Origin: Oscillospiraceae bacterium
GTDB lineage: Bacteria > Bacillota > Clostridia > Oscillospirales > CAG-272
Length of the DNA stretch: 64,000 nt
NCBI GenBank assembly: GCA_015063845.1
Contig: SVTJ01000005.1
Location: 19,454-83,453, forward strand
Reading direction: 5' to 3'
This document shows positions 2,430 to 62,823 of the stretch, one piece after another; positions within the stretch are counted from its first letter, which is position 1, and the number at the start of each line of letters is the position of its first letter. A program made the translations under genes and the position numbers. The notes under the pieces are model-generated. The model made no database searches. It was not told the origin of the DNA and worked only from the letters and a program-made list of their open reading frames with translations.

Positions 2430-3833
2430 ATGAAAAAATACGCTTATAATTTTGAAATTGCCGTTATCGGTGCAGGTCCTGCGGGAATATGCGCGGCTCT
2501 CGCCGCAGCAAGACGCGGACATAAGGTAATAATGCTCGATAAGAACGGTTTCCTTGGCGGCAACGCAACTCTCGGTCTGCCGCTTCTCGGATTTCTTGAC
2601 CTTGACGGCAGAAGAATAGTCGGCGGAATTGCTCAGGAGCTGGTTGAAAAGCTTCAGAAGAGAGGCTCTTGTCTCGGTCACCGCACCTGCCCTAAGCACA
2701 ATTCCACCACTAATATCAATCCCGAGGATTTCAAGCTCCTCGCTATCGAGATGTGCCGCGAGGCAGGTGTCGAGATACTGCTTCACTGTGAGGCAGCTGC
2801 CGTAAATAAGGAAAACGGCAAGATAAAGACGGTACAGCTCTACGGAAAGGGCAACGTTATCGAGATAACTGCTGACATATTCCTTGACTGTACAGGCGAC
2901 GGCGACGTTGCTTACCTTGCGGGCTGCTCTTATGAAATGGGACGCGGCGAGGCTCAGGTGCTTCAGCCCCCCACGGTAATGTTCACGCTTGAGAACGTCG
3001 ACACGGCAAAGCTGTTCGACTATATCGAGGCTCATCCCGAGGAGATGACTTACAGCGCGACCATTGAGCACCGCCCGGGTTACGATGCTGACTACTTCCG
3101 CAGAAGCGATAACCACGTTTTCGTAGGACTTCGTCAGATATTTACAAGACTTCGCGAAGAGGGCAAGCTCCCCGTAGAGAGAGAAACGCTCATCTACATC
3201 AAGAGCCTTAACCCCGGTGAGGTATACGTAAACTCCACCAGAATGCTCAATACCGACGCAACGGATATCCTCTCGCTTACCAAGGCAGAGCTTGACGGTC
3301 AGCTTCAGACCGCAAAGCTTACCGAGGTGCTCAGAGAAAACGTTCCCGGCTTTGAAAACTGCTTCATTTCCGCTATTCAGCCGTCTATCGGTGTTCGTGA
3401 GACAAGACGTTTCTCGGGTATCTACAAGCTTACGGCAGACGAGATCTGCGCGGGTAATATAGACGACCAGACCATAGCACTCGGAGCATATAAGATCGAT
3501 ATCCATTCGGGTACTGACCGCACAACGATATTCAAGTCGGTCAAGGCTCCGTTTGGTATTCCTTACGGTGTTCTCGTCAGCAACGAGATCTCTAACCTTA
3601 TGTTTGCAGGAAGATGTGTATCCTGTGACAACGAGGTCCTTGCAGCTATCCGTATTATGCCTCAGTGCATGAATATGGGTGAGGCAGCAGGTATCGGCGC
3701 GGCTATGGCGCTTGAGAATAACGTAACGCCCGCTGAGGTGGACGTTGCTGCTCTTCGTAAAGCTCTTCTCGACGGCGGCGCGATCCTTTCTATGGATCAG
3801 GTCTACGTCCACGACGACGATATGCAGGGCTAA
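2430..3833 (+). CDS. FAD-dependent oxidoreductase (FAD_oxidored/PF12831-like)
   Basis: N-terminal dinucleotide-binding motif AVIGAGPAGICAALAAARRGHKVIMLDKNGFLGGN, and a later DCTGDGDVA motif typical of this family. Confidence 0.8.
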   Translation: MKKYAYNFEIAVIGAGPAGICAALAAARRGHKVIMLDKNGFLGGNATLGLPLLGFLDLDGRRIVGGIAQELVEKLQKRGSCLGHRTCPKHNSTTNINPEDFKLLAIEMCREAGVEILLHCEAAAVNKENGKIKTVQLYGKGNVIEITADIFLDCTGDGDVAYLAGCSYEMGRGEAQVLQPPTVMFTLENVDTAKLFDYIEAHPEEMTYSATIEHRPGYDADYFRRSDNHVFVGLRQIFTRLREEGKLPVERETLIYIKSLNPGEVYVNSTRMLNTDATDILSLTKAELDGQLQTAKLTEVLRENVPGFENCFISAIQPSIGVRETRRFSGIYKLTADEICAGNIDDQTIALGAYKIDIHSGTDRTTIFKSVKAPFGIPYGVLVSNEISNLMFAGRCVSCDNEVLAAIRIMPQCMNMGEAAGIGAAMALENNVTPAEVDVAALRKALLDGGAILSMDQVYVHDDDMQG

Positions 3834-3840
3834 ACCGTAA

Positions 3841-3896
3841 AGAACGCGGAGACGCGAGGACGCGAGGATGCGAGGACGCGAGGACGCGAGGACGCG
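3841..3896 (+). repeat. Tandem array of seven 8-nt units (consensus AGGACGCG)
   Basis: Units are agaacgcg gagacgcg aggacgcg aggatgcg aggacgcg aggacgcg aggacgcg. The array starts 7 nt after the TAA of the upstream CDS. Confidence 0.95.
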
Positions 3897-3930
3897 TTGA
3901 GGGGAACTTCTTGAAAGAAGTTCCCCTCAA
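3897..3930 (+). repeat. Module B: 34-nt perfect palindrome/hairpin
   Basis: TTGAGGGGAACTTCTT-GA-AAGAAGTTCCCCTCAA. Variants occur at 9635-9670, 33298-33333, 56911-56944 and 7018-7047. Confidence 0.95.
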
Positions 3931-4017
3931 ACTCCCTTCAAGAACTTTAAAACTAAATTGTTATTGGTGTAGCCGTAAAAAAGATATAACTTTATTGGTT
4001 TTATTATAAGGAAAAAA

Positions 4018-4055
4018 CTCGTCGGACGATAGATCACCGACGAGTTTTATTTTTA
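4018..4055 (+). terminator. Intrinsic terminator embedded in repeat module C
   Basis: CTCGTCGG-11 nt loop-CCGACGAG followed by TTTTATTTTTA and preceded by an A-run. The same structure occurs at 9759-9796, 33422-33459 and (variant loop) 57031-57060. Confidence 0.8.
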
Positions 4056-4112
4056 TGGGTATTGTATATGAATGCGTAAAAATTAAATACACGAGCCCGA
4101 ATGAAGAATGAT

Positions 4113-4258
4113 AAATTAGGATTTATCGGTGTGTTGAATTACAATTCCGTAGGGGCGATTCACGAATCGCCCGCCACGAGAACATAATGCTATAAACGGG
4201 CGATTCGTGAATCGCCCCTACGATTTGATGGATCTAACTATTCGACAAATCCTAATTT
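4113..4258. repeat. Module D: REPIN-like foldback with two inverted GTAG-headed palindromes, bounded by inverted AAATTAGGATTT ends
   Basis: Left end is AAATTAGGATTTATCGGTGTG and right end is CGACAAATCCTAATTT. CGTAGGGGCGATTCACGAATCGCCCG (4148-4173) and its exact reverse complement (4197-4222) are separated by 23 nt. The second copy at 10062-10207 differs at 2 positions. Confidence 0.9.
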
Positions 4259-4466
4259 GAAAGTGCACAAATGGCATCGCATTGCAACAAAGGCTCCCTG
4301 CGGAGGGAGCTGTCGAGCGAATGCGAGACTGAGGGAGAGCGCGTGTACAATAGCGTTATATCTTACCTCCGTATGCACGCTGGCTCCTTCCACCACTTCG
4401 TGGTCCCCCTCCCTCTCGGAGGGAGGCTTATGGGTGCTGTGCGAACACACCGACAAATCCTAATTT
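4259..4466 (+). repeat. Module E: 208-bp hairpin-rich cassette (candidate non-autonomous mobile element or structured RNA)
   Basis: Differs at 3 of 208 positions from the reverse complement of 9854-10061. Hairpins at 4293-4310 (GCTCCCT-GCGG-AGGGAGC), 4392-4404 and 4408-4426 (CCTCCCTC-TCG-GAGGGAGG). Right end is GGGTGCTGTGCGAACACACCGACAAATCCTAATTT. Confidence 0.9.
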
Positions 4467-4601
4467 GAAGCACAATTCCTTGATTTGTTTTTCTCTTTCT
4501 TATATTGTTTTTTTAAAAGAAAAGTAAGAATTCTATTGATTTTGGGAGTTTTGTGTGATATAATTAATTTAACTATGAATATCAACGAAAGGAATTCTGA
4601 T

Positions 4602-6995
4602 ATGTCAACAAAAAACAACTATTGGGTAAAGTACACCGGTGGTAAATGCAAGGACGCTTGCGTTGTTCAGGGCGACAAGTACCGCTTTAGCGTTTTGTCG
4701 AGCATGCTCATTCGTCTTGAGTATAGCGAGGACGGCGTTTTTGAGGACAGACCCTCTCAGGTGGCACTTAACAGAGATTTTGACGTTCCCGATTTTCACG
4801 TAAGAGAGCTTGACGGATTTCTCGAGATCTTTACCGAGCACTTCCAGCTCGTTTATAAGGGCGGAGAATTCACACCCGATACTCTTTACATAGAAGCAAA
4901 GAACAACTACACCAACTACGGCGCGAGATGGAGATTTGGTGAGGCTCAGTACGGTAATCCTCCCAGACATCACAACCTTCTCGGTACTGCTCGTACGCTT
5001 GATAAGATGGACGGAAAGGTCGAGATGGAGCACGGTCTTATAGACTCCAGCGGACGTACCTTTATCGACGACACTGCATCCTTGCTTTTCGATGAAGAGG
5101 GCAGACTTGTACCCAGACGCGAGGGAACTGTTGACGTATATTTCTTCTCATACGGACACAACTACTTCGAGGCACTCAAGCAGTACTATAAGCTTACGGG
5201 TATGCCTCCTATGCTTCCTCGTTATGCATACGGTAACTGGTGGTCGAGATACCACGATTATACCGACAAGGAGTACACCGAGCTTGTTGACCGCTTCCGC
5301 GCTGAGGACTTTCCTTTCTCCGTTGCCGTCCTTGATATGGACTGGCATATCACAAAGGTAGACCCCAAGTACGGTAAGGGCTGGACGGGCTACACTTGGA
5401 ACAGAGAGCTTTTCCCCGATCCTCCCGCATTCCTCAAGTCGCTTCACGACAAGAATATGCACACGTCTCTCAATATTCACCCCGCAGACGGTGTTCAGGG
5501 CTTTGAGGACGCGTACGAGGCAGTTGCTAAGGAGATGGGCATTGACCCCAAGAGCGACGACCCCGTAAGATTTGACTTTACCGATCCTAAGTTTATAGAC
5601 GCATACTTCAATCTTCTCATACATCCTCTTGAGGACGACGGCGCTGACATCTGGTGGATAGACTGGCAGCAGGGAAAGAGCTCGGGTATCAAGGGACTTG
5701 ACCCGCTCTGGCTTCTCAACCACTTCCACTATCTTGACTCCTGCCGTGGCGGCAAGAGAGGTATGATACTCTCCAGATACTCGGGTTGGGGTAGCCAGCG
5801 TTATCCTCTCGGCTTCTCTGGAGACACCATTGCGTCTTGGGCTTCTCTCAACTTCCAGCCTTACTTTACAGCTACTGCTGCAAACGTAGGATATACATGG
5901 TGGAGCCACGATATCGGTGGATTTACAAGAGGAACGGGAAGCAAGGAAATGCTGCTTCGTTGGATACAGCTCGGAGTATTCTCTCCCGTAATGAGACTTC
6001 ACTCCAGCTCCAACCCCTACTGTCTCAAGGAGCCTTGGCTTATGGACGGTATCCACTACGATACCTTCAAGAAGTTCTTGCACCTGCGCTACGAGCTCAT
6101 TCCTTATATGTATACAGCGGCTTACCGTTGCCATGCAGAGGGAATTCCCAATATTCATCCTATCTACTACGTATATCCCGATGTTCCCAAGGCATACGAA
6201 TGCCTCAACCAGTATTTCTTTGGCAGCGAGCTTATGGTATGTCCTATTACAAAGGAGATGGACAAGGAAACTCAGATGGGCAGCATGAAGGTATGGTTGC
6301 CTGAGGGAGTTTGGACGGATATGTTCTCTGGACACACATACAGAGGTAACCACAGCGTAACCATCAACCGTAGAATAACCGACCAGGCTGTTCTTGCTAA
6401 GGCAGGCGCGATAGTTCCTCTCGCTGTTCGTAAGGATAACGAGACGCTCAATCCCGATGCATTCAAGGTTCTCGCGTTCCCCGGTGGAGAGGGAAGCTAC
6501 ACGCTGTTTGAGGATAGCGGTGACGGATACGAATTTGAGCAGGGCAAGAAGGTTGCAACCAAGTTCGAGATGAAGAACTGCGACGGTGGAATGAACTTCA
6601 CTATTCACGCAGAGGGCGATATGAGCATCGTTCCCGCAGAGCGTAAGTACGAGCTTTGCTTCCGCGGATTTGAGCCCTTTGAGGTTGAGACCGAAGTTCC
6701 TTGCACGACCTCTTACGACAAAGAGACGCGCACGCTCAGCGTAAAGCTTGAGGCAGTCGCAACGACCAAGGATATCACCGTTAAGATGGTAGAGCCCAAG
6801 ATGGATACTCATAAGGACGCATACGAGAGAGTACGCGACTTCCTTATCCATTCCGAGGTTCCCGTTCGCACGAGAAACCTTGTCGACGCTGTTTGCCGCG
6901 AGCCCGTTTCGGTTGGAGAGATGGTTCAGTCGCTTCACACGCTTGATATTTCTCCCGAGGTGTTCGGAGTTATCTGCGAGCTTATGTTCTCTTAA
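4602..6995 (+). CDS. Glycoside hydrolase family 31 protein (alpha-glucosidase/alpha-xylosidase type)
   Basis: GAAAGGA RBS precedes ATG 4602; the upstream part of the track ORF lies in AT-rich non-coding sequence. GH31-type motifs KGWTGYTWNRELFPDP, DIWWIDWQQG and WSHDIGGF. Confidence 0.85.
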   Translation: MSTKNNYWVKYTGGKCKDACVVQGDKYRFSVLSSMLIRLEYSEDGVFEDRPSQVALNRDFDVPDFHVRELDGFLEIFTEHFQLVYKGGEFTPDTLYIEAKNNYTNYGARWRFGEAQYGNPPRHHNLLGTARTLDKMDGKVEMEHGLIDSSGRTFIDDTASLLFDEEGRLVPRREGTVDVYFFSYGHNYFEALKQYYKLTGMPPMLPRYAYGNWWSRYHDYTDKEYTELVDRFRAEDFPFSVAVLDMDWHITKVDPKYGKGWTGYTWNRELFPDPPAFLKSLHDKNMHTSLNIHPADGVQGFEDAYEAVAKEMGIDPKSDDPVRFDFTDPKFIDAYFNLLIHPLEDDGADIWWIDWQQGKSSGIKGLDPLWLLNHFHYLDSCRGGKRGMILSRYSGWGSQRYPLGFSGDTIASWASLNFQPYFTATAANVGYTWWSHDIGGFTRGTGSKEMLLRWIQLGVFSPVMRLHSSSNPYCLKEPWLMDGIHYDTFKKFLHLRYELIPYMYTAAYRCHAEGIPNIHPIYYVYPDVPKAYECLNQYFFGSELMVCPITKEMDKETQMGSMKVWLPEGVWTDMFSGHTYRGNHSVTINRRITDQAVLAKAGAIVPLAVRKDNETLNPDAFKVLAFPGGEGSYTLFEDSGDGYEFEQGKKVATKFEMKNCDGGMNFTIHAEGDMSIVPAERKYELCFRGFEPFEVETEVPCTTSYDKETRTLSVKLEAVATTKDITVKMVEPKMDTHKDAYERVRDFLIHSEVPVRTRNLVDAVCREPVSVGEMVQSLHTLDISPEVFGVICELMFS

Positions 6996-7017
6996 GTTAA
7001 TTGAATATTATATTAAG

Positions 7018-7077
7018 AGGGGTACTTTCTTTCAAGAAAGTACCCCTTGCGCTTCCCTAAAAACTTTTAAAAAATAT
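7018..7077 (+). repeat. Short member of the repeat family (B-type hairpin plus conserved tail) downstream of GH31
   Basis: AGGGGTACTTTCTT-TC-AAGAAAGTACCCCT followed by TGCGCTTCCCTAAAAACTTTTAAAAAA. Compare module B plus ACTCCCTTCAAGAACTTTAAAAC. Confidence 0.8.
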
Positions 7078-7154
7078 ATAATTTGTGTTGAACAAGCGGG
7101 GAATATATGGTATAATTTTAAGTGAAGTAAAATGAGAGCTTGGAAGGAGTATAT

Positions 7155-9590
7155 ATGAAAAAAGTATATATCGACAAGGCATGGAAGCTCAAGGAAAATA
7201 GCATTGGCGAGATTGCTGCGACCGTCCCCGGGTGCGTACATACCGATCTTTTGGCGGCGAATATCATCGGCGACCCGTTCTGGAGAGATGAAAACCTAAA
7301 ATATCAGTGGATAGAGGAGAGGGATTGGGAGTACTCCACTCGTTTTGACGCCCAGACAGACAATGCGAGAGCCCTTGTTTTTGAGGGGCTTGATACCTAT
7401 GCGGAGATCTATCTTAACGGAGCTCTGCTTGGAAAAACGGAGAATATGTTTATTCCGCACAGCTTTGATATAAGAGGCGCGCTGAGAGAAAAGGACAACG
7501 AGCTCAGAGTAGTATTCCGCTCGCCGGTGAAGGCTGTTGAGGGACTACCCAAGCTCAAGGCTGCATTTACTGCCGAAAGGCTTCATTCACGCAGAGTGCA
7601 GTGCACATACGGCTGGGACTGGGTAGACCGCTTTGTGACGGCTGGCATATGGAAGCCCGTGTATCTTGCTTACGACAACGGTATTGATATAGAGAGCGTT
7701 TACGTTTATACCGACAACGCAGACAAATACGGCGCGCAGATAGTAGCCGAGATGTACTTTGAGAATATCCAAGAAGGGCAGATGGCAAGCGTGGAGATTG
7801 TTTCTCCCGACGGAGAGACGGTCGCCGGCACGCAGTTTTTTGCCGATATGGAAGAGGCAGTGCGCCGATTTGATATCGCGTCTCCCAAGCTCTGGTATCC
7901 CGCAGGCTACGGCGAACAGCCGCTCTACCGTTTTATTTTGACTGTGGGAGAGAATAGAAACGAGCACCTTTTCGGTATACGCACGCTCAAAATAGTGCAG
8001 CTGCCTGACGGCGAGGGCAGTGAGAATTACGCCAAGGCAATGGCTGCGCAAGAGACAAAAAGCGGAAAGCTTTACAGCAAAAACACAGAATTTTCGGGCT
8101 TTTTCGTGGTCGTGAACGGCGTGAGAATAAACTGCAAGGGAGCTAACTGGGTTCCTTGCGAGCCGTTTATGTCCGCAGAGAGCGACCAAAAGATAAGAAC
8201 TGTAATAAGACGCAGTGCCGATATGGGCGCGAATTTTATACGCGTTTGGGGCGGCGGAATATTTGAGCACGAGAGCTTTTACGACGAGTGCGACAAGCTC
8301 GGTATGCTCGTGGCGCAGGACTTTCTTATGGCTTGCGGAGACTACCCCGAGAAAGAGGAGTGGTTTATAGAGGAGCTTAAGAAAGAGGCGGAGTTTGCGG
8401 CAAAGTACCTCAGAAATCACACCTGCCTTGCTTGGTGGCACGGAGATAATGAGAACGCTGTAAAGGGAAGTGACACGCAAGAGGACTACGTTGGGCGCGA
8501 CAGCGCGCTCCGCGGTATTGCCCCTGCGATATATAAGCACGACCACACGCGTCAGCTCCTGCCCTCAAGCCCATACGGCGGAGAGACTTACGCCTCGGTA
8601 ACAAAGGGAACGGCGCACAACACAAACTATATCCACCTGATGTTCAGATATTTCCTTGAAAGTGATTGCAAGGATTATAAGGAGTATCTTGAAAACTATA
8701 CGGCGCGCTTTATTTCCGAAGAGCCTGTTTTCGGTGCGGTCAATCGTTCGTCAGCGCTTAAGTTTATGAGCGAGGACGACCTTTTGAGAGACGAGAGCGA
8801 GGAGATGATATACTTCCACACCAAGAGCAATCCCGGGCTTAAGACACATTTGTTCACCTCGGTCTCCGAATTTGCAAGGAAGATATTCGGCGACTTTGAG
8901 GACGGAGAGGATAAGTTCTTTAAATACAAGTACGTTCAGTATGAGTGGGTACGCACCGTGTTTGAGAATGCGCGCAGAAACCTCGGATACTGTGACGGAA
9001 TGATATTCTGGATGCTCAATGACTGCTGGCCTGCATTTGGCGGTTGGTCGTTTATAGACTACTACAATATGCCAAAGCAAGCGTTCTACGCATTCAAGCG
9101 TTGCGCGAAGGACGTTGTGGGCTCGGTGGTAAAGACCGACAAGGGCTATGAGCTGTGCATATCCAACGATACCGACAGAGCGATCTACGTAAACGTCACG
9201 GCGAGAGTGCTTGGAAGCGAGGCGCACCCCGTAAAGCTTGCGGTGGTCTCCAAGGCATACAGCGTAAAGAGAGTGACGTTGCCGTTTGAACCTTGCGAGG
9301 GTAGTGTGGTCGTATGCGATCTTGATACACCGCACATTGCGGACAGATGCTTCTATAAGGACGGTGACCTCGCACTGACACGCGCCGACAAAATGCTGTG
9401 CGTGCTGGAGCGTACCGAGAATAGTATAACGCTTAAAGCGGACGGCTATATCCACACGGTCGAGCTTGAGGGAGAGTATCTGCTTGACGATAATTGCTTC
9501 TCAATGCTCGCGGGCGAGACAAGAACTGTGAAGATTACACCCTTGTCCGCTGATATGACACTTGATATTCATGCATATACCTTAAAATAA
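7155..9590 (+). CDS. Glycoside hydrolase family 2, beta-mannosidase-like
   Basis: GGAAGGAG RBS precedes ATG 7155. The N-terminus AWKLKENSIG..VPGCVHTDLLAANIIGDPFWRDENLKYQWIEERDWEYSTRFD is typical of GH2 beta-mannosidases. WHGDNE acid/base-type motif present. Confidence 0.75.
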   Translation: MKKVYIDKAWKLKENSIGEIAATVPGCVHTDLLAANIIGDPFWRDENLKYQWIEERDWEYSTRFDAQTDNARALVFEGLDTYAEIYLNGALLGKTENMFIPHSFDIRGALREKDNELRVVFRSPVKAVEGLPKLKAAFTAERLHSRRVQCTYGWDWVDRFVTAGIWKPVYLAYDNGIDIESVYVYTDNADKYGAQIVAEMYFENIQEGQMASVEIVSPDGETVAGTQFFADMEEAVRRFDIASPKLWYPAGYGEQPLYRFILTVGENRNEHLFGIRTLKIVQLPDGEGSENYAKAMAAQETKSGKLYSKNTEFSGFFVVVNGVRINCKGANWVPCEPFMSAESDQKIRTVIRRSADMGANFIRVWGGGIFEHESFYDECDKLGMLVAQDFLMACGDYPEKEEWFIEELKKEAEFAAKYLRNHTCLAWWHGDNENAVKGSDTQEDYVGRDSALRGIAPAIYKHDHTRQLLPSSPYGGETYASVTKGTAHNTNYIHLMFRYFLESDCKDYKEYLENYTARFISEEPVFGAVNRSSALKFMSEDDLLRDESEEMIYFHTKSNPGLKTHLFTSVSEFARKIFGDFEDGEDKFFKYKYVQYEWVRTVFENARRNLGYCDGMIFWMLNDCWPAFGGWSFIDYYNMPKQAFYAFKRCAKDVVGSVVKTDKGYELCISNDTDRAIYVNVTARVLGSEAHPVKLAVVSKAYSVKRVTLPFEPCEGSVVVCDLDTPHIADRCFYKDGDLALTRADKMLCVLERTENSITLKADGYIHTVELEGEYLLDDNCFSMLAGETRTVKITPLSADMTLDIHAYTLK

Positions 9591-9853
9591 GCAGCATACG
9601 CGGAGACGCGAGGACGCGGAGACGCGAGGATGCGTTGAGGGGGACTTTCTTGAAAGAAAGTCCCCCTCAAACTCCCCCAAAGAACTTTAAAACTAAATTG
9701 TTATTGGTGTAGCCGTAAGAAAAGATATAACTTTATTGGTTTTCTTATAAGGAAAAAACTCGTCGGACGATAGATCACCGACGAGTTTTATTTTTATGGG
9801 TATTGTATATGAATGCGTAAAAATTAAATATACGAGCCCGAATGAATAATGAT

Positions 9854-10061
9854 AAATTAGGATTTGTCGGTGAGTTCGCACAGCACCCATAAGCCTCCCT
9901 CCGAGAGGGAGGGGGACCACGAAGTGGTGGAAGGAGCCAGCGTGCATACGGAGGGAAGATATAACGCTATTGTACACGCGCTCTCCCTCAGTCTCGCATT
10001 CGCTCGACAGCTCCCTCCGCAGGGAGCCTTTGCTGCAATGCGATGCCATTTGTGCACTTTC
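9854..10061 (-). repeat. Module E, second copy, inverted relative to locus 1
   Basis: The reverse complement matches 4259-4466 except for 3 substitutions. Here it lies to the left of module D rather than to the right. Confidence 0.9.
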
Positions 10062-10207
10062 AAATTAGGATTTATCGGTGTGTTGAATTACAATTCCGTA
10101 GGGGCGATTCACGAATCGCCCGCCACGAGAACATAATGCTATAAACGGGCGATTCGTGAATCGCCCCTACGATCTGTTGGATCTAACTATTCGACAAATC
10201 CTAATTT
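10062..10207. repeat. Module D (REPIN-like), second copy
   Basis: GTAG palindromes at 10097-10122 and 10146-10171. Same orientation as copy 1. Confidence 0.9.
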
Positions 10208-10221
10208 GAAGCACAAATCAA

Positions 10222-10263
10222 TTTTTACTTACTTTTCTTTTTCAAAAGAAAAGTAAGTAAAAA
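10222..10263. repeat. 42-bp perfect AT-rich palindrome
   Basis: TTTTTACTTACTTTTCTTTT-TC-AAAAGAAAAGTAAGTAAAAA. A degenerate relative occurs at about 4490-4525. Confidence 0.9.
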
Positions 10264-10264
10264 A

Positions 10265-10300
10265 GACATAACCACCGAGCTCGGTGGTTATGTCTTTTTT
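10265..10300 (-). terminator. Intrinsic terminator of the cpsCDB-type operon (bidirectional architecture)
   Basis: 30-bp perfect palindrome GACATAACCACCGAG/CTCGGTGGTTATGTC, flanked by an A-run and a T-run, immediately after the stop codon at 10299-10301. Confidence 0.85.
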
Positions 10301-11018
10301 ATTTTGTAAGGTCTATCATCTCTGCGCCACTCAACAAGTCGTTTGAGCGTGCGAGTATATTGCCGTAATGCTCTCCCAAACGCTTTTTTAACCTTGAAAA
10401 ATCCTTCAAAGAGCCTTTCTTTGAGCCGTGAAGGTCGCTTCCTATCGCGACGATGCTTTCGGAATCTGCGAGTATTTGGTTTATATGCTTTTTAGGGCCA
10501 AACGTTGACAACGCAAACGGATTTATCTGCGCAAGCGCGCCCATATCCAAAAGGGGATAGACGTATTCGGGGTGAGCCTTGAGATATCTGTCGATATGTG
10601 CAAGCACAACGACATATCCACTGTTCAATATAGCCTCGACCGTTTTGTAGTGTCCCGGGTTCATATCGTCAGAGGGAAGCTCCAAAAGAAGCGTTTTTGT
10701 TCCTCTCACGCAAAGCTCGGACAGACCCTCAAGCTGGTCGATATTTTCGCAGAGCAACACCTCAGCACCGATGCAAAGCAAAGGCGCTTTTTCAGCTCCT
10801 ACCTGCTTTAGGCGTGCGAGTGCGGCGTTGACGTTTTCCGAAAACTCCGACACGTTATGAAGGTGCGGATAAAAGTGTGGGGTCGCCACCGCGATATCCG
10901 TTCCCACCTCACGCATCATAGCAAGCTGAGCTCTGCATTCGGACGAGCTTTTGCAGCCGTGGTCTGCACGGGGGATTATATGCGAGTGGAAATCTATATT
11001 AGGTATCTTTTCTGACAT
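10299..11018 (-). CDS. cpsB: PHP-family protein-tyrosine phosphatase (CpsB/CapC type)
   Basis: N-terminal IDFHSHIIPRADHG metal-binding motif, size about 240 aa, and position downstream of the BY-kinase. Confidence 0.8.
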   Translation of the reverse strand: MSEKIPNIDFHSHIIPRADHGCKSSSECRAQLAMMREVGTDIAVATPHFYPHLHNVSEFSENVNAALARLKQVGAEKAPLLCIGAEVLLCENIDQLEGLSELCVRGTKTLLLELPSDDMNPGHYKTVEAILNSGYVVVLAHIDRYLKAHPEYVYPLLDMGALAQINPFALSTFGPKKHINQILADSESIVAIGSDLHGSKKGSLKDFSRLKKRLGEHYGNILARSNDLLSGAEMIDLTK

Positions 11019-24328: not shown

Positions 24329-24583
24329 TTTAGAATTTGTCGGTGTGTTCGCACAGCACCCCTTTTAAAAGTTTTAGTCAAGTTTTTTTAAAAACTTGCG
24401 GGGTCAAGGGGCGGCGCCCATTGCCGCTCTCCGCAGAGAGCGGAATCCTTTACACTGAGAAGGGAGTTCCGACGCTTGCGAGCGTCGGCAATCCTGCGCG
24501 GCTTGAGCGCGAAAACTTTTGAAAAAGTTTTATCAAAACTTTAAAGCCGGGTGCTGTGCGAACACAGCTATAAATCCTAATTT
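24329..24583. mobile_element. Complete 255-bp foldback element of the repeat family (MITE-like)
   Basis: About 34-nt inverted ends (TTTAGAATTTGTCGGTGTGTTCGCACAGCACCC / GGGTGCTGTGCGAACACAGCTATAAATCCTAATTT). Internal 8-bp-stem tetraloop hairpins at 24424-24443 and 24469-24488, plus an AT hairpin at 24379-24398. No coding capacity. Confidence 0.55.
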
Positions 24584-24621
24584 TCAAAACCCTTTCAAAA
24601 TGTTTTCCTCAAAAGGCGCGT

Positions 24622-24665
24622 CATAAAAAAATATACCCCCCGTTAAATGCTTACGGGGGGTATAT
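24622..24665 (-). terminator. Intrinsic terminator of the 77-aa gene
   Basis: 13-bp stem ATATACCCCCCGT/ACGGGGGGTATAT flanked by A- and T-runs, directly after the stop at 24675-24677. Confidence 0.85.
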
Positions 24666-24674
24666 TTACTTTTT

Positions 24675-24908
24675 TTACGCGTTCTGTGCGAGCCACTCGT
24701 CAGCCTTAGCTGCGGAGATGCGCTTGATATCTTCCTTGGTGTACTTGGAATCAGCACCGCCGTTTGTGTAAAGGAAAAACTTGCCGCCCTCGGTCTTATA
24801 AAGGGTCTCCTCGTAACCGTCGGTATCACCGAAGTTGCCGAAGGTCTTCTTGAAAACAAGCTCGGAAGCAGCAGTGTCGTACTCTACCTTGCAGATGATC
24901 TTCTTCAT
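24675..24908 (-). CDS. Small conserved-looking hypothetical protein (77 aa)
   Basis: It has its own near-consensus promoter, an AAAGGA RBS and a terminator. Its codon style resembles the ribosomal-protein genes. No motif recognised. Confidence 0.6.
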   Translation of the reverse strand: MKKIICKVEYDTAASELVFKKTFGNFGDTDGYEETLYKTEGGKFFLYTNGGADSKYTKEDIKRISAAKADEWLAQNA

Positions 24909-24951
24909 TATGTATACGTCCTTTCTAAAGATTTGCTTTGTTAACGGACGT

Positions 24952-24980
24952 ATTATACCACATTTTTTTCAAAATTGCAA
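24952..24980 (-). promoter_or_regulatory. Sigma-A type promoter for the 77-aa gene
   Basis: On the minus strand: TTGCAA, 17 nt, TATAAT, with TGG (extended -10) upstream. Confidence 0.6.
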
Positions 24981-25332
24981 TAGTAATCTGATGGAAAAAA
25001 CAAAAAAAGAGAAAGCACAACGATACGTACTTGCACGGTTTGTTATCATAAGATTGATAATCCGATGCTTTCAGGTTCGTTGTGCGTGACGCTGTGGAGT
25101 TGGTGCCGCCGACAGCATGATTATTATACCCCCAAAAGCAAATTTTGTAAATATCCATTTTAGACGATTTTTTGTCGAAAATTTCGTCAAAATTGATACG
25201 CATAGTAAAAAAATGCCCCCAAAAACCCCAAATTGCTTAGAGAAAAGCACGACACGGACGGAATGTCGTAGGTATGTCGCGGTGGCTCGAAAACTGCCGA
25301 AAAAGAGAAAAAATATTTTTTTGCAAAAACAC

Positions 25333-25361
25333 TTGACAAGAGAAGTCGAATATGGTATACT
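25333..25361 (+). promoter_or_regulatory. Sigma-A type promoter of the infC-rpmI-rplT operon
   Basis: TTGACA, 17 nt, TATACT, preceded by TGG. Confidence 0.65.
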
Positions 25362-32557: not shown

Positions 32558-33265
32558 ATGATGCAGAACACGGATATTTCGCTTCTTGAGAGAGCGATAG
32601 GTTATACCTTTAAGGACAAAAGAATACTTAAGGAAGCTTTGACGCATTCTTCGTATGCTCACGAGCTGAGAAGCAAGAGGATAGAGACGCAGTGCAACGA
32701 ACGTCTTGAATTTCTCGGCGATTCCGTGCTCTCTATCGTTACGAGCGAGTATCTGTTTTCAAAGTATACCGATCTGCCCGAGGGCGACCTTACTCATATG
32801 CGCGCGGCTCTCGTTCAGTCGCAAGCGCTTGCTAAGTATGCAAGAGGTATAGGGCTTGGACAGTTTTTGTACGTTGGTAACGGTGAAGAAAGAAACCGTG
32901 ACCAGCAGTCAATACTTGAGGACGCATTTGAAGCTCTTTTGGCGGCTATGTACCTTGATGCCGCCGAAAACGGACTTGACGTGATAAGAGCGTTTTTGCT
33001 TCCCATAATCAAAAAGGAGCTCGAGGAGAATAGCACGCGTACCTTCTATGCGGACGCTAAGACCGAGCTTCAGCAGCTTACGCAGATAAGCGACGGAGCG
33101 ACACCCGTTTACCGAGTAATAGGTGAGAGCGGACCCGATCATCAGAAGACCTTTGAGGTCGAGGTTATGCTTAATTCTAACGTTATCGGTCACGGCAAGG
33201 GACGCTCAAAGCGCGAGGCGGAACAAAACGCCGCTCGCGAAGCACTCGAATTGTTTGGTGTATAG
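32558..33265 (+). CDS. rnc: Ribonuclease III
   Basis: Signature NERLEFLGDSVL and a C-terminal dsRBD (GPDHQKTFEVEV..GKGRSKREAEQNAA). Confidence 0.95.
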   Translation: MMQNTDISLLERAIGYTFKDKRILKEALTHSSYAHELRSKRIETQCNERLEFLGDSVLSIVTSEYLFSKYTDLPEGDLTHMRAALVQSQALAKYARGIGLGQFLYVGNGEERNRDQQSILEDAFEALLAAMYLDAAENGLDVIRAFLLPIIKKELEENSTRTFYADAKTELQQLTQISDGATPVYRVIGESGPDHQKTFEVEVMLNSNVIGHGKGRSKREAEQNAAREALELFGV

Positions 33266-33773
33266 AGGACGCGAGGATGCGAGGACGCGGAGACGCGTTG
33301 AGGGGGACTTTCTTGAAAGAAAGTCCCCCTCAAACTCCCCCAAAGAACTTTAAAACGAAATTGTTATTGGTGTAGCCGTAAGAAAAGATATAACTTTATT
33401 GGTTTACTTATAAGGAAAAAACTCGTCGGACGATAGATCACCGACGAGTTTTATTTTTATGGGTATTGTATATGAATGCGTAAGAATTAAATACACGAGC
33501 CCGAATGAATAATGATAAATTAGGATTTATGGGGGGTGTTTGTGTTGTAAAACGGGTCGTCGAGGACAACTTCGTACCGAGTTTTCTTCGAAAACATCGG
33601 TCGACCCCTACAATGGATAGAGCGAACATATTCGCATCAGATGTTGTTTGATGTGCATTTGATGGAAAATATGTTTATGTTTTATGGTGAATTCTATTAG
33701 GAGCGTGTAGGGGTCGACGTCCTCGTCGACCCGTTTTACAACACAAACACAATACACCGATAAATCCTAATTT
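33266..33773. repeat. Composite repeat locus 3, module order A(4 units)-B-C-G
   Basis: The 8-mers at 33266-33297 begin at the base after the rnc TAG. Hairpin B at 33298-33333, terminator at 33422-33459, foldback G at 33517-33773. Confidence 0.95.
33517..33773. repeat. Module G: 257-bp foldback with about 50-nt inverted ends and a GTAG-headed palindrome
   Basis: The left end AAATTAGGATTTATGGGGGGTGTTTGTGTTGTAAAACGGGTCGTCGAGGAC aligns with the reverse complement of the right end ..GTCCTCGTCGACCCGTTTTACAACACAAACACAATACACCGATAAATCCTAATTT. GTAGGGGTCGACGTCCTCGTCGACCC at 33707-33732, and an inverted partial copy at 33599-33611. Confidence 0.85.
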
Positions 33774-39940: not shown

Positions 39941-41674
39941 ATGATAAAGCTTATATCACCCAAAAAATACGAGAACGTAGTTTTGCTTCGAGAGAGACAT
40001 CTTGAATACATAAAAAATCCCATTGCCGACCCCGAGGCGTCAAAGCAGATAGAATGGCTCAATCTTAAGGCAACGGGGCAGGATATGTCCTATCCCGAGC
40101 CCGTCGTGTTTAGCTATGAGCCTGCTGTTGACGGAGAGATAGTGCTCAAGCGCAGCGGAGGAGAAACAAGAACGTATAAGGCTGTTGCGGGCAAGGCGGA
40201 GATAACCAATCTTTATATTGATACCTTTTATGAGTGGTACGTTTGCATAGACGGCGAAAGGTCGAACACGAGCATATTCCACACCGACGCGCAGACCCCG
40301 AGAATGCTTTATGTCGACGGAATATCAAACGTAAGAGATATAGGCGGATTTTATACCGTTGACGGCAAGAAAAGGGTAAAGCAGGGGCTTGTGTTCCGTA
40401 CATCGGAGATGGATACGCACGTTGAGATAACCGAGGACGGCAAAAAAACGCTGCTCGACGAGCTTTGTATGAAGACCGATATCGACATAAGAGGCATCAA
40501 GGACGAATATCGCGGACCTGTGCTGGACGAGACGAGAGTAAAGTGGGTAAATTATCCTTTGGCGGCGTATATAGATATGTTCAACGAGGCGCAGATGGAG
40601 CTTTACAGACAGAGCTTTGAGTTGCTTGCTGACGAGAACACCTATCCGCTTATGCTTCATTGCTGGGGCGGCATAGACAGAACGGGCTGTTGGCTGTATA
40701 TTCTCGGCGGAATGCTGGGTGTCGGCAAGGACGACCTTGAGCTTGACTACGAGATGTCGTCGTTCTCGCGCTGGAACAGAAGAAACCGCAACCACCCTCA
40801 GTTTGTGGAATTTCTCGAGGCTCTGCATAAGTACGGAGAGACCACGTATGATGCGTGCGTAGGCTTTTTGCGCGCATGCGGAGTGAGCGATGAGACTATG
40901 GACAAGATAAGAAATATTCTTTTGGAGGACGCAACGGCGTCTTATAATAAGAGCGAATGGAACGGCTATGAAAGATATGACTTTATGTTTGAGGACAGAA
41001 GCGCGATAGTTGTCTGCCCCAAAAACCCCACGCCCGACAAAAAGTGGCTTTTCAAGACCGAGTATTTCGGCGCATTTCCTCGCTTTGAGCTGGATATGCT
41101 GGAGAAGGGCTACTACGTAGCGCACGTCAAGAACATCACGCGCTGGTGCCTGCCCGAGGATACCGACGCAAAGGCGAGATTTGCTGAGTTCCTTCACAAG
41201 GAGTTTGGCTTCTGCGAGAAATGCGTGCCCGTAGGAATGAGCTGCGGAGGAATGCAGGCGATCTATTTTGCGGCTAAATATCCGAAATACGTACCGGCAA
41301 TGTATATCGACGCGCCCGTTATCAATCTGCTCAGCTGCCCGTGCGGCGTCGGAACTGCCACGAACGGAGTTGAGAGACGTTACGCTGAATTCGTCAACGC
41401 AACGGGCTTTACGGTATCCGATATGATAAACTACCGCAATCACCCGATAGACCACGTGGACGAGTTGCTGGCGGCGGATATTCCCGTATTCCTTGTGTGC
41501 GGTGACAGCGATACCATAGTACCCTATGAGGAGAACGGCAAGGTGTTCTCACGTATCTACCGCGAGAAGGGCGGTACTATTGAGGAGATACTCAAAAAGG
41601 ATTGCGATCACCACCCCCACGGTCTCGAGGATACCACACCGATACAAAGGTTTGTGGAGAAGTATTATAACTGA
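39941..41674 (+). CDS. Fusion protein: PTP-superfamily (Y_phosphatase3-like) phosphatase domain plus C-terminal alpha/beta hydrolase domain
   Basis: CX5R P-loop HCWGGIDRTG around residue 245. The C-terminal half has GMSCGG (GxSxG), GDSDTIVP and DHHPHG, consistent with a Ser-Asp-His triad. Confidence 0.7.
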   Translation: MIKLISPKKYENVVLLRERHLEYIKNPIADPEASKQIEWLNLKATGQDMSYPEPVVFSYEPAVDGEIVLKRSGGETRTYKAVAGKAEITNLYIDTFYEWYVCIDGERSNTSIFHTDAQTPRMLYVDGISNVRDIGGFYTVDGKKRVKQGLVFRTSEMDTHVEITEDGKKTLLDELCMKTDIDIRGIKDEYRGPVLDETRVKWVNYPLAAYIDMFNEAQMELYRQSFELLADENTYPLMLHCWGGIDRTGCWLYILGGMLGVGKDDLELDYEMSSFSRWNRRNRNHPQFVEFLEALHKYGETTYDACVGFLRACGVSDETMDKIRNILLEDATASYNKSEWNGYERYDFMFEDRSAIVVCPKNPTPDKKWLFKTEYFGAFPRFELDMLEKGYYVAHVKNITRWCLPEDTDAKARFAEFLHKEFGFCEKCVPVGMSCGGMQAIYFAAKYPKYVPAMYIDAPVINLLSCPCGVGTATNGVERRYAEFVNATGFTVSDMINYRNHPIDHVDELLAADIPVFLVCGDSDTIVPYEENGKVFSRIYREKGGTIEEILKKDCDHHPHGLEDTTPIQRFVEKYYN

Positions 41675-41680
41675 TCTTTT

Positions 41681-41714
41681 AAGGGGAAAGCTTCCTATAG
41701 GAAGCTTTCCCCTT
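41681..41714. terminator. 34-bp perfect palindrome between convergent transcription units
   Basis: AAGGGGAAAGCTTCCTA/TAGGAAGCTTTCCCCTT. T/A tracts are weak, so terminator function is inferred from position. Confidence 0.55.
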
Positions 41715-41740
41715 ATCTATATTGATTTTGTGTCAGATCC

Positions 41741-56880: not shown

Positions 56881-57204
56881 CAAATTTGGATTTATCGGGG
56901 ACGCGTTTTTTTGAGGGAAACTTCTTGAAAGAAGTTTCCCTCAAACTCCCTTCAAGAACTTTAAAACAAAATGGTTATTGCTATAGCCATAGGAAATATA
57001 TAACTTTATTGTTTTTCTCTGAGGTAAAAACTCGTCGGACCCTACGTACCGACGAGTTTTATGGGTATTTGAACGTTCTGCACTGCAATGAGTTTTTCAG
57101 CCCAATTAAAAAAATAATAATTTCTTTGTGTTAAAGTTCTTAGAGTGGGGGACACTCGCAAGCGTCGGCAAGCCTGTGCGAACACCCCGACAAATCCTAA
57201 TTTG
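56881..57204. mobile_element. Complete 324-bp foldback member of the repeat family (MITE-like), carrying divergent B and C modules
   Basis: Inverted ends CAAATTTGGATTTATCGGGG / CCCCGACAAATCCTAATTTG match at 18 of 20 positions. One GACGCG unit, hairpin B' at 56911-56944, terminator hairpin at 57031-57056, and a sub-terminal inverted AAGAACTTTAA(A/C)AC motif. Confidence 0.55.
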
Positions 57205-57226
57205 ATGAGAAATTTTCAAAAAACAC

Positions 57227-57255
57227 TTGACAAAGGGATTGAAATATGGTAGAAT
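57227..57255 (+). promoter_or_regulatory. Sigma-A type promoter of rpmG-secE-nusG
   Basis: TTGACA, 17 nt, TAGAAT, preceded by TGG. Confidence 0.65.
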
Positions 57256-59607: not shown

Positions 59608-59618
59608 CTCAAATGCAC

Positions 59619-59647
59619 TTGACAAAGCGCTGAAAATCGTGTAGTAT
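59619..59647 (+). promoter_or_regulatory. Sigma-A type promoter of the PHP-like gene
   Basis: TTGACA, 17 nt, TAGTAT. Shares the 13-nt TGAAAATCGTGTA with the rny promoter. Confidence 0.55.
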
Positions 59648-59688: not shown

Positions 59689-60762
59689 ATGGAAAAAAGA
59701 ATGGTATTAAAGGCAACGGACGCGGACGTCGCGCAACTTGATAAGCTTTATGAAGGAAAAACACTGTATTTCGGCGACCTTCATAATCACGCAAAGACGG
59801 GCGGACGAAGCGACGGCAGATACACGCTTGAGCAGTGGAAGGGCGCGCTTGCTGCGCTTGATATGGATTTTGTCGCTATACTTGACCATAGACAGGTAAG
59901 ACATATGTACCTGCCCGAATGGGAGGACGGTACGTTCATCTGCGGTACAGAGCCCGGAACGAGAATACTTGACTGCGAGGCGATAGACGGCAATAACGAG
60001 ATACATTACAATATGCTTGTTCCCGGTCCCAAGGTGCTTGAGGAGATACTCAACGAGTTTGAGGGCTATGAGTTTGAGGGCGGTCCTGAGGGCTTCTATA
60101 AGTATTTGAGATTTACCCGAGAAGAAATGGGTGTTCTTGTGGACGCGGTATTGGCAAAGGGAGGATTTTACGTTCATCCTCACCCCAAGCAGTATCTGAA
60201 ATCCAACGACCCGCTCGACTATTGGTTCAGAGATAAGACGGGTCTTGAGGTCTTCTATTACGATATGAGAAGCGAGGGCACGCAGGAAAACTATAAGCTT
60301 TGGTGCGACCTTTTGGCGCTTGGCAAGAGAGTGTTTGCGTGCGCGGGCGAGGACGGACACAAAATCGCGAGAAACACCGCGCTGACGGCTATTTACGTGA
60401 CTGAAAAGAGCTCCCCAGGATTTATGCTCAGCCTCAGAGACGGTAACTTCGTATGCGGCTCGGTCGCGCTTCGTATGTGCGTAGGAGACACGGCTATGGG
60501 CGGAAGCTGTGTGTTTGACGGTCAGAGACTGTGTGTATCCGTTGATAAATTCCATTGCTCTGTCGCTAATCCCGAGCATAAGTATGAGCTTGTTGTTCTT
60601 GACGATAAGGGCGTTGTTGCGAGAAGAAGAATATCTTGCGACCAGCCTTCATATTTCGCGTTCAAGGTGGATAGCGACGCAAGGTTTTACAGAGCAGAGG
60701 TGCTCGACGTAAATCAGAACCTCAGAATATCCATAGGAAATCCCATTTGGAACGATAAATAA
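59689..60762 (+). CDS. Hypothetical PHP/CehA-McbA-like metallohydrolase
   Basis: AAGGGAG RBS. N-terminal FGDLHNHAKTGGRSDG and ..FVAILDHRQ motifs resemble PHP-fold metal ligands. The rest is unassigned. Confidence 0.45.
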   Translation: MEKRMVLKATDADVAQLDKLYEGKTLYFGDLHNHAKTGGRSDGRYTLEQWKGALAALDMDFVAILDHRQVRHMYLPEWEDGTFICGTEPGTRILDCEAIDGNNEIHYNMLVPGPKVLEEILNEFEGYEFEGGPEGFYKYLRFTREEMGVLVDAVLAKGGFYVHPHPKQYLKSNDPLDYWFRDKTGLEVFYYDMRSEGTQENYKLWCDLLALGKRVFACAGEDGHKIARNTALTAIYVTEKSSPGFMLSLRDGNFVCGSVALRMCVGDTAMGGSCVFDGQRLCVSVDKFHCSVANPEHKYELVVLDDKGVVARRRISCDQPSYFAFKVDSDARFYRAEVLDVNQNLRISIGNPIWNDK

Positions 60763-62747: not shown

Positions 62748-62823
62748 ATTTAAAAATAACTATTGAAAATACGGCGGCAATATGGTAAAATAAAAAGGTA
62801 GTAAAAAGCAAAGGAACGTATTG

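Follow-up and report, generated by a model that had tools for sequence, protein, structure and literature searches.

Intergenic repeat clusters in an uncultured Oscillospiraceae bacterium appear to be pile-ups of at least two small repeat families, one of them placed mostly against stop codons

The DNA analysed here, a 64-kb stretch from an uncultured gut or rumen bacterium of the Oscillospiraceae (contig SVTJ01000005.1; hereafter the window), contains six intergenic loci that are clusters of small non-coding repeats. According to Pfam, the flanking genes include those for an FAD oxidoreductase, the glycoside hydrolases (GH) GH31 and GH2, CpsB, Lon and EF-P. The initial annotation had described the loci as one mosaic family built from a single parts list, in which 8-nt tandem units (module A), a perfect hairpin with its tail (module B) and an AT-rich terminator segment (module C) were combined with swappable cargos (D, E, G) bounded by inverted ends. 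Direct reading of the six loci located all of them, and every named module, at the coordinates claimed. The loci would be better described, from their sequences, as pile-ups of at least two superimposed families of small repeats with different phylogenetic ranges, namely the B units and a set of foldback elements. Below, locus 1 is 3841-4466, locus 2 lies after GH2, locus 5 lies after rnc, and L-numbers denote comparison loci or contigs. The main features are as follows.

3844-3896, plus strand: module A of locus 1, the 8-nt tandem GACGCGAG in 5.8 copies (Tandem Repeats Finder, TRF)
3885-3955, plus strand: B unit of locus 1, consisting of the last A unit, the palindrome 3897-3930 and the tail ACTCCCTTCAAGAACTTTAAAAC; 85.9 bits with covariance model R1
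3954-4112, plus strand: module C of locus 1, AT-rich, with a predicted intrinsic-terminator hairpin and U tract at about 4014-4056
4113-4258: element D, a 146-nt foldback with AAATTAGGATTT ends, 99% identical to 10062-10207
4259-4466, minus strand: element E, inverted with respect to locus 2, with the long motif AAATTAGGATTTGTCGGTGTGTTCGCACAGCACCC at one end; inverted repeat I1, 224 nt, 98%
7003-7075, plus strand: solo B-unit variant, 22 nt past the GH31 stop and upstream of a promoter-like site of GH2; 61 bits with R1
9598-10262, plus strand: locus 2, after GH2, with A at 9598-9634, the B unit at 9623-9695, C to 9853, E at 9854-10061, D at 10062-10207 and H at 10208-10262
24329-24583, minus strand: 24.3-kb element, a 255-nt foldback, each end carrying the long end motif; arms of 84 nt (inverted repeat I2)
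33265-33773, plus strand: locus 5, after rnc, with A at 33265-33297, the B unit at 33286-33358, C to 33516 and the foldback G at 33517-33773
56882-57203, plus strand: composite 56.9-kb element, with the end motif, GACGCG-T7, the B unit at 56899-56969, a C' terminator at about 57027-57065, an inverted tail remnant (overlooked in the initial annotation) and the long end motif

The multi-copy, modular and non-coding character of these loci was borne out by repeat counts against shuffled sequences and by block identities. The hairpin-plus-tail pattern CCCTCAAACTCCCNNNAAGAACTTTAAAAC occurred four times in the window, against 0.00 expected, and the 19-nt end motif AAATTAGGATTTRTCGGTG, allowing up to 3 mismatches on both strands, 11 times against 0.03, in both orientations as had been proposed. 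Repeat blocks of 150-270 nt were 95-99% identical between loci; thus the A-B-C block was 95% identical between the GH2 and rnc loci, and the copies of D (99%) and E (98%) at loci 1 and 2 are similar enough to point to recent copying. The same loci were assembled independently, and identically, from at least seven samples. Open reading frames (ORFs) crossing the modules were not conserved between copies, E being inverted between loci and hairpin insertions and deletions shifting the frame, and the modules appear to have no coding capacity. In particular, a small ORF starting at a TTG in the hairpin loop of B was rejected because such hairpin changes alter its frame among copies.

The B unit spans about 70 nt and comprises a purine-rich terminal motif (RGRRACGCG), a perfect palindrome of 30-36 nt and a 20-nt tail, ACTCCC..AAGAACTTT. 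From 19 aligned copies the layout reads as an outer motif (GAGAACGAC, GGAGAACGCC or GAGGACGCG), TT or a T run, the 30-36 nt palindrome, AA and the tail ACTCCCTTC-AAGAACTTT. A palindrome scan of the window found perfect palindromes with arms of 14-17 bp at 3897-3930, 7018-7047 (the solo variant), 9635-9670, 33298-33333 and 56910-56945 which, together with the pattern count, substantiates module B at the five loci where it had been proposed. All five units lie on the plus strand and scored 61-86 bits with R1, a covariance model built from B units and applied to the window and the comparison loci. The right boundary is marked by the orthologous aspS loci L074 and L081, identical through AAGAACTTT and unrelated beyond it. 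The solo variant at 7003-7075 stands without an A array and without C. Other roles considered for the palindrome did not hold. No U tract follows it on either strand, as would be needed for a terminator; instead AAACUCCC follows and a T run often precedes. A CRISPR-like repeat or a DNA uptake sequence was likewise rejected, as there are no arrays and the arms co-vary instead of being fixed words.

Pairing in the B stem was nearly complete. Across 16 pairs in 19 sequences, 97.7% of the cells were paired, 31 had changed on both sides and only 2 of 304 were G-U; no shuffle or slid register came near these values. Part of the double changes, at two adjacent pair positions, amount to a one-base difference in arm length. 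Moreover, the orthologous copies in L070 and L076 differ by compensated changes at two positions of the stem. Because G-U pairs are almost absent, the pattern suggests that constraint acts also on the DNA, or that one arm has repeatedly been re-copied from the other. RNA folding gave -45.7 kcal/mol for the A+B segment and -22 kcal/mol for the solo variant at 7018, and in the predicted fold a GGAG on the A side is able to pair with CUCC of the tail.

Period-8 arrays were detected by TRF at 3851-3896 (5.8 copies), 9605-9634 (3.8) and 33265-33297 (4.1). At locus 1 module A begins 11 nt past the stop codon of the FAD oxidoreductase gene (TAA, 3831-3833), and at locus 5 the array overlaps the TAG stop codon of rnc. 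Module A is the 8-10 nt motif at the end of the B unit, amplified in tandem: relatives in one or two copies (GAGAACGAC, GGAACGAG-GGGAACGC) were found in other genomes, the two-copy form GGAACGAG GGGAACGC in a second lineage of 57% GC. Its description as a variable-number tandem repeat stands in so far as the arrays differ between loci; in every same-species contig examined they were identical, so that the evidence for variation does not extend to strains. A weak CsrC-like match was also noted at 3803-4062 (20 bits where 61 are needed, E = 6e-4). It probably reflects composition, namely the GGA that recurs along the 8-nt array; every such GGA could be part of a CGCG-AGGA-CGCG mini-hairpin.

Module C was nearly identical at loci 1, 2 and 5 when aligned, with about 7-8 differences between loci 1 and 2, much as the initial annotation had counted, and a diverged copy was aligned at 56.9 kb. 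It contains the stem ACTCGTCGG..CCGACGAGT followed by TTTTATTTTT, the arrangement of an intrinsic terminator; the hairpin folds at -17 kcal/mol and the U tract follows directly. The hairpin is followed by UUUUAUUUUU, and in a sister metagenome-assembled genome (MAG) a double change leaves the stem paired. Module C is therefore, as far as sequence and predicted fold can tell, an intrinsic terminator. A cargo with such a terminator often comes after the B unit.

The position of the B units relative to genes was evaluated for about 27 oriented units from the window and the comparison loci, whose flanks were read individually. For 21 of them a co-oriented gene ends close by, its stop codon being no more than 30 nt from the A side, or 65 nt if an A array stands between the two. 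A further three follow the canonical terminator of a co-oriented gene (the window unit at 56.9 kb, L043 and L078), and the other three point toward a gene start (L073, L077 and L081, the last upstream of aspS). The orientation lock that had been proposed thus holds for all five window units, each after a plus-strand gene, and for 24 of about 27 overall; it is not absolute, given the three that face gene starts. A transposase beside units pointing at gene starts was looked for and rejected, the neighbours being a cation-efflux transporter and a sulfatase-modifying/glycosidase protein. At five convergent gene pairs (L002, L011, L053, L070 and L076) one unit sits at each stop codon with the tails facing inward, and solo units occupy intercistronic positions between co-directional genes at 7018, L074 and L098. 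The adjoining stop codons are TAA (about 22), TAG (3) and TGA (2), with no constant preceding word. The orientation bias is real and is tied to the position of the stop, not to one DNA word, because all three stop codons are adjoined. The stop of rnc reads TAG|AGGACGCG here and is TAA in two sister genomes. C-termini were left intact: neither aspS nor rnc changes in length when a unit is present.

Two further B-like sequences, and an additional palindromic module, had been overlooked in the initial annotation.

24584-24623, minus strand: degenerate B remnant (GACGCGCC-TTTT-GAGGAAAAC..), read from the sequence and below the R1 threshold
41680-41715: B-like perfect palindrome (TAAGGGGAAAGCTTCC..), 29 bits with R1, with a U-rich stretch after it
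4467-4530: module H, the distal flank at locus 1, GAAGCACAA.. followed by a degenerate ..TTTAAAAGAAAAGTAAG palindrome; repeats D11 and I4

The remnant at 24584-24623 is found downstream of a minus-strand gene of 77 aa and of that gene's terminator, and its relative orientation matches that of the other B units. The palindrome at 41680-41715 begins 5 nt after the stop codon of gene 39941-41674, and at the orthologous site of the sister MAG a C-type terminator stands in its place. Module H (ACTTTTCTTTT..AAAAGAAAAGT) lies beyond the last end motif at loci 1 and 2, its clear form being 10208-10262; it is also found in L037 and L043, and at locus 2 it is followed by a native bidirectional terminator (10255-10304).

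The second family consists of foldback elements that end in (C/T)AAATTAGGATTTRTCGGTG, represented by D, E, G and the elements at 24.3 kb (between the 77-aa gene and lon) and 56.9 kb. All have AAATTAGGATTTRTCGGTG as a terminal inverted repeat at both ends except E, which has one good end. Element D folds as a single 146-nt hairpin (-73.8 kcal/mol, z = -11), and its interior holds two inverted GTAGGGG+hairpin units, a style shared by G and by copies in the sister MAG. A GGCTCCC..GGGAGC hairpin plus GTTCGCACA is common to E, the 24.3-kb element and a diverged element of the relative L107. The conserved foldback unit always takes in AAATTA..TAATTT, and the outer flanks are not direct repeats; TA flanks GGATTT..AAATCC in 11 of 12 termini, and the AAAT/ATTT further out is just as constant. 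In the window at 56.9 kb and in L043, from the sister MAG, B and C lie inside a pair of 19-nt ends with the same junction (ATCGGGG|ACGCG or ATCGGGG|AGGCG), so that the composite is a repeated unit in its own right; B units also occur as inverted terminal pairs in L070, L076 and L043. The order of elements is D and then inverted E at locus 1, and E and then D at locus 2. A single inversion between inverted ends was ruled out because D has the same orientation at both loci, and the permuted order would fit insertions made separately, at the distal end of C, beside or within other elements. The notion of swappable cargos bounded by inverted ends is thus better replaced by that of separate foldback elements inserted side by side.

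A 50-nt core of E, GGCTCCC..GGGAGCTGTCGAGCGAATGCGAGACTGAGGGAG (window 4288-4337), recurs in high-GC contigs from human faeces (L112, 4001-4050; L113, 2837-2887) that are unannotated and were deposited under the name 'Bacteriophage sp.'. In these contigs the core sits in the gap between convergent genes, flanked by AACTCCTTCC and GGAAGGAGTT, which resemble the B tail and its inverse.

The two families also differ in where they were found. As for the host, the rnc product of the window is identical to a protein annotated as ribonuclease III in a Ruminococcaceae/Oscillospiraceae MAG. A scan of a genome collection with the 19-mer end motif returned 56 loci. At least 17 of these are contigs of the sister MAG JAZSNX01, whose genes have about 80% nucleotide identity to those of the window and which carries D-like, E-like, B and C modules. 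About half of the remaining matches are unrelated and fall at the start of proC (MKLGFIGAG). The motif AAATTAGGATTTATCGGTG coincides with the KLGFIG codons of that gene in many Lachnospiraceae and other Firmicutes (L006, L012, L017, L020, L030, L034, L038, L039, L045, L048-L050 and L052), so exact-match scans with the 19-mer pick up unrelated genes. In metagenomes, the B-tail pattern matched 13 loci, 11 of them true B units in a Clostridia lineage of 57% GC, where they adjoin housekeeping genes (aspS, amylase, phosphoesterase, cation-efflux transporter) and have no transposase beside them. The 14-nt core of the end motif was absent from the B loci of that lineage, which argues that B units and foldback elements are separate families, the latter having been found only in this species and close relatives. 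Among viral contigs the B pattern had no match and the 19-mer two. No named repeat family could be assigned, in agreement with the initial annotation: Rfam at gathering thresholds gave no match in the whole window (the best sub-threshold match by E-value at locus 1 being CsrC), BLASTN against plasmid and phage collections gave no full-length match (the 50-nt E core, and an AT-rich stretch in Enterococcus plasmids), and a literature search with the module sequences returned only irrelevant matches.

Presence/absence and rearrangement polymorphism, on which the initial annotation had made its proposal depend, exists between species and as alternative arrangements in metagenomes. The 322-nt element at 56.9 kb is missing from the spacer between efp or the 150-aa gene and rpmG in three relatives, where the terminator and promoter are conserved; these empty sites are too diverged to reveal the target. 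After rnc, the sister genomes L066 and L067 have the gene's own terminator and no repeat, and the hpt|aspS spacer holds a unit in L081 but none in L098 or L100. Judged by such comparisons between species, the elements are insertions. A clean empty site for the 24.3-kb element was not obtained, the species carrying an extra island of about 1 kb at this place. This island, between lon and infC (24675-25300; L103), is missing from most relatives and holds genes of 77 and 92 aa (no Pfam match) and the 24.3-kb element; in L107 a diverged foldback element occupies about the same place.

Alternative arrangements of loci 1 and 2 were found in four contigs. In L117 the FAD oxidoreductase gene, A and B are followed by a different cargo; in L119 GH2-A-B-C is followed by other genes, with no E or D; and in L120 the right flank after D differs. 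Contig L114 (ENA ERZ27248314 k141_918147), compared with window 3834-9853 and L119, combines the A array and 5' C variants of locus 1 with the 3' C variants of locus 2 and the flank of L119, the crossover falling inside module C. It corresponds to the product that recombination between two A-B-C copies would be expected to yield, with loss of the 5.7-kb GH31-GH2 segment.

Comparison of about 50 ORFs of the window with Pfam revealed no transposase, integrase or reverse transcriptase family, consistent with the absence of mobility genes claimed before. About 11 of these ORFs had no Pfam match at all, and ribosomal-protein and other conserved genes outside the scan were identified from precomputed Pfam labels of identical contigs. 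The longest ORFs without a match at E ≤ 0.01 are 315-2327 (670 aa) and 59689-60762 (357 aa). A gene for a REP-associated tyrosine (Y1) transposase (RAYT) was likewise not found in the window or the comparison loci.

The repeats are probably mobile. From their structure, position, covariation and presence/absence we infer, with moderate confidence, that they are non-autonomous repeats moved in trans and co-transcribed as hairpin and terminator modules of 3' untranslated regions (UTRs). Because no enzyme gene lies nearby, they would spread in trans, through an enzyme encoded elsewhere in the genome or since lost. Slippage would amplify the terminal motif of B into the 8-nt array of A, and foldback elements would insert beside or into one another at the distal end of C, giving the permuted order of D and E. 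The transcript of the upstream gene would run through A and B and stop at the C terminator, ending in a 3' UTR some 210 nt long that contains a highly stable hairpin; B, as a 3' UTR or intercistronic hairpin, could block 3' exonucleases or be cut by double-strand RNases. The copies would also act as substrates of homologous recombination, by which neighbouring genes are reshuffled or deleted. If the repeats are co-transcribed, a sizeable share of the genes of this lineage would carry an imported 3' hairpin and terminator, which would shape mRNA stability and operon polarity and confound the prediction of terminators and small RNAs. They may also drive gain and loss of carbohydrate-active genes, as in the variant that lacks GH31-GH2.

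Several observations weigh against such an origin. No autonomous element, insertion sequence or transposase with the same ends was found in the window, the comparison loci or the plasmid and phage collections, a weak negative because the complete genome lay outside the search. Comparison of flanks demonstrated no target-site duplication at the foldback ends, where the flanks beyond AAATTA..TAATTT are not direct repeats; an IS630-like TA duplication is possible only if AAAT/ATTT represents a target preference. Every same-species contig (at least seven samples) had the same sequence at the 24.3-kb, rnc and 56.9-kb loci. The rearranged contigs L114, L117, L119 and L120 are short-read metagenome assemblies in which chimeric joins across repeats may occur; indeed, the repeats appear to break or mis-join such assemblies, and several contigs end inside them. 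Finally, selection is hinted at by the B unit that follows aspS, which three lineages share at about 98% conservation while the spacer around it has diverged, and units placed at TAA, TAG and TGA without distinction are no less suggestive of a selected function than of selfish spread.

These last points would fit a B unit that serves mainly as a selected, cis-acting RNA module at the 3' ends of genes, spread by copying being secondary. The Shine-Dalgarno (SD)-like repeats, the hairpin and the CUCCC tail would then together influence mRNA decay, the release of ribosomes or processing between cistrons from a position just after the stop codon. Besides the aspS copies and the indifference to stop codon identity, the compensated pair of double substitutions in L070/L076 and the predicted GGAG-CUCC pairing speak for it, as do the solo units of L074 and L098, which lie between aspS and the ribosome-binding site of the next gene as an intercistronic stabiliser would. 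We nevertheless consider it an unlikely alternative, since G-U pairs in 2 of 304 cells are unusual for a purely RNA-level constraint, relatives keep the orthologous genes without a unit, three units point at gene starts, B also occurs within foldback elements past a normal terminator, and Rfam has no match. A related and more speculative proposal, to which we give rather little credence, couples the B unit to translation stops as such. Either an insertion machinery would aim at the stop position, an idea supported by the rnc stop being TAG|AGGACGCG here and TAA in two sister genomes, or the unit would be a selected post-stop module, whose SD-like 8-nt repeats of tunable number, perfect hairpin and anti-SD-like tail could set ribosome release, 3' protection of the mRNA or intercistronic processing. 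[quoted passage not shown]

Movement of the B units as single-stranded DNA by an HUH/Y1 transposase, in the manner of REP/REPIN sequences moved by RAYT or of palindromes derived from IS200/IS605, would account for asymmetric ends, a hairpin near the end, a lacking target duplication and a fixed orientation. The units do have asymmetric ends around a perfect hairpin (the purine motif and the ACTCCC..AAGAAC tail), their stem changes are nearly always compensated and skip G-T intermediates, as would be expected if a protein recognised the hairpin in DNA, their orientation is strongly biased, no target duplication was seen, and the inverted pairs of GTAGGGG+hairpin units inside D and G resemble REP doublets. 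However, we hold this route to be rather improbable: no Y1 transposase gene lies in the window or beside any copy, no constant 4-5 nt target precedes the units, the inverted terminal pairs of L070, L076 and L043 are unlike the IS200/IS605 layout, and the B unit has no GTAG signature, which is confined to the D and G interiors and the sister-MAG copies. It is highly improbable that the A-B-C blocks are recombination sites of an integron-like system in which GH31-GH2 and other genes are cassettes, each with an oriented site after it. The single orientation at gene 3' ends and the precise loss of GH31-GH2 between two A-B-C copies in L114 recall such a system, but that crossover falls in a stretch of plain homology of about 87 nt, which is what ordinary homologous recombination would show; the arms GAGGGGAAC..GTTCCCCTC lack the RYYYAAC/GTTRRRY core sites of attC, and the palindrome is perfect where that of attC is imperfect; no integrase was found among the window ORFs scanned; and the flanked rnc, aspS and efp-linked genes have promoters and terminators of their own. 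Virtually no weight is left for chance similarity of ordinary terminators or an assembly artefact. The palindromes at 41680-41715 and L053 6868-6897 do appear to be plain terminators, each with a U-rich tract after it, but 4-11 matches were observed where shuffles give 0-0.03, the blocks of 150-270 nt are 95-99% identical between loci, and identical loci were assembled from at least seven independent samples.

Read as non-autonomous repeats that spread in trans, the clusters are in their working most like bacterial interspersed mosaic elements (BIMEs), with a resemblance also to the BOX/RUP/SPRITE clusters of pneumococcus. BIMEs are reportedly mosaics of REP palindromes in E. coli and other enterobacteria, and REPs are said to lie close to stop codons and to affect translation when within about 15 nt of them. 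REP hairpins between E. coli cistrons stabilise the upstream cistrons, and BIMEs are co-transcribed and act as recombination hot spots. The common ground is a mosaic of extragenic palindromes and short motifs lying mostly after genes or between the genes of operons. In contrast to BIMEs, with which there is no sequence similarity, the B palindrome is perfect, longer (30-36 nt) and devoid of a 5' GTAG, its 8-nt terminal motif is tandemly amplified, it keeps an almost fixed orientation to the upstream gene, it belongs to a Firmicute, and the organism has no known RAYT. As for IS200/IS605-derived repeats, the orientation bias and absent duplication agree and a fixed 4-5 nt target does not. The foldback elements agree with MITEs in size (60-330 nt, where MITEs stay under about 600 bp), multi-copy non-coding nature and inverted ends, and no full-length insertion sequence with the same ends was found in the data searched. 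Correia repeats of Neisseria and ERIC of Yersinia are also small foldback repeats, co-transcribed with neighbouring genes as RNA hairpins that are cut by RNase III or alter RNase E access and change mRNA levels in an orientation-dependent manner; unlike the repeats described here, they have defined TA target duplications and no stop-codon preference.

For the pneumococcal repeats, PMC10969869 describes BOX, RUP and SPRITE as clustering together and inserting into one another, BOX being modular with a variable number of internal units, SPRITE terminator-like and RUP a small inverted-repeat element moved in trans (Croucher et al. 2011 via PMC10969869). The likeness lies in the Firmicute host, the modularity, the terminator-like repeat and the clustering. 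The sequences and host order differ, the tandem unit here is only 8 nt and lies at the outer end, and the hairpin abuts stop codons; furthermore, RUP is linked there to IS630-Spn1, and no matching insertion sequence was found here. A minisatellite-containing MITE of Porphyromonas gingivalis (PMC4596501) carries a tandem array within a small inverted-repeat element, but its array is internal and of longer units, as opposed to the 8-nt terminal motif, and it belongs to another phylum. The kind of system is familiar and the family itself is new. What is unusual is a perfect palindrome set against stop codons in near-fixed orientation in at least two lineages, the expansion of its terminal 8-nt motif, and evidence for reshuffling of adjoining glycoside-hydrolase genes by the repeats.

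Two other non-coding blocks were noted in the window. Between lon and infC, a block of about 125 nt (~24995-25125; AAAAAGCACAACCGAAACCG..GATATCATAAGATTGATATTCCGC..CCGTTGTGCGTGACGCTGTGGAGTTGGTGCCGCCGACAGC) is kept in the window and in all nine relatives compared (L102-L111). It has no Rfam match at gathering score and may be a small RNA gene or a leader. A promoter-like block, AAAAACACTTGACAA..N..TATGGTAnAAT, is shared by 25319-25361, 57213-57255, 59611-59647 and 62755-62791 (repeat families D6 and D9), upstream of infC, rpmG and two other operons.

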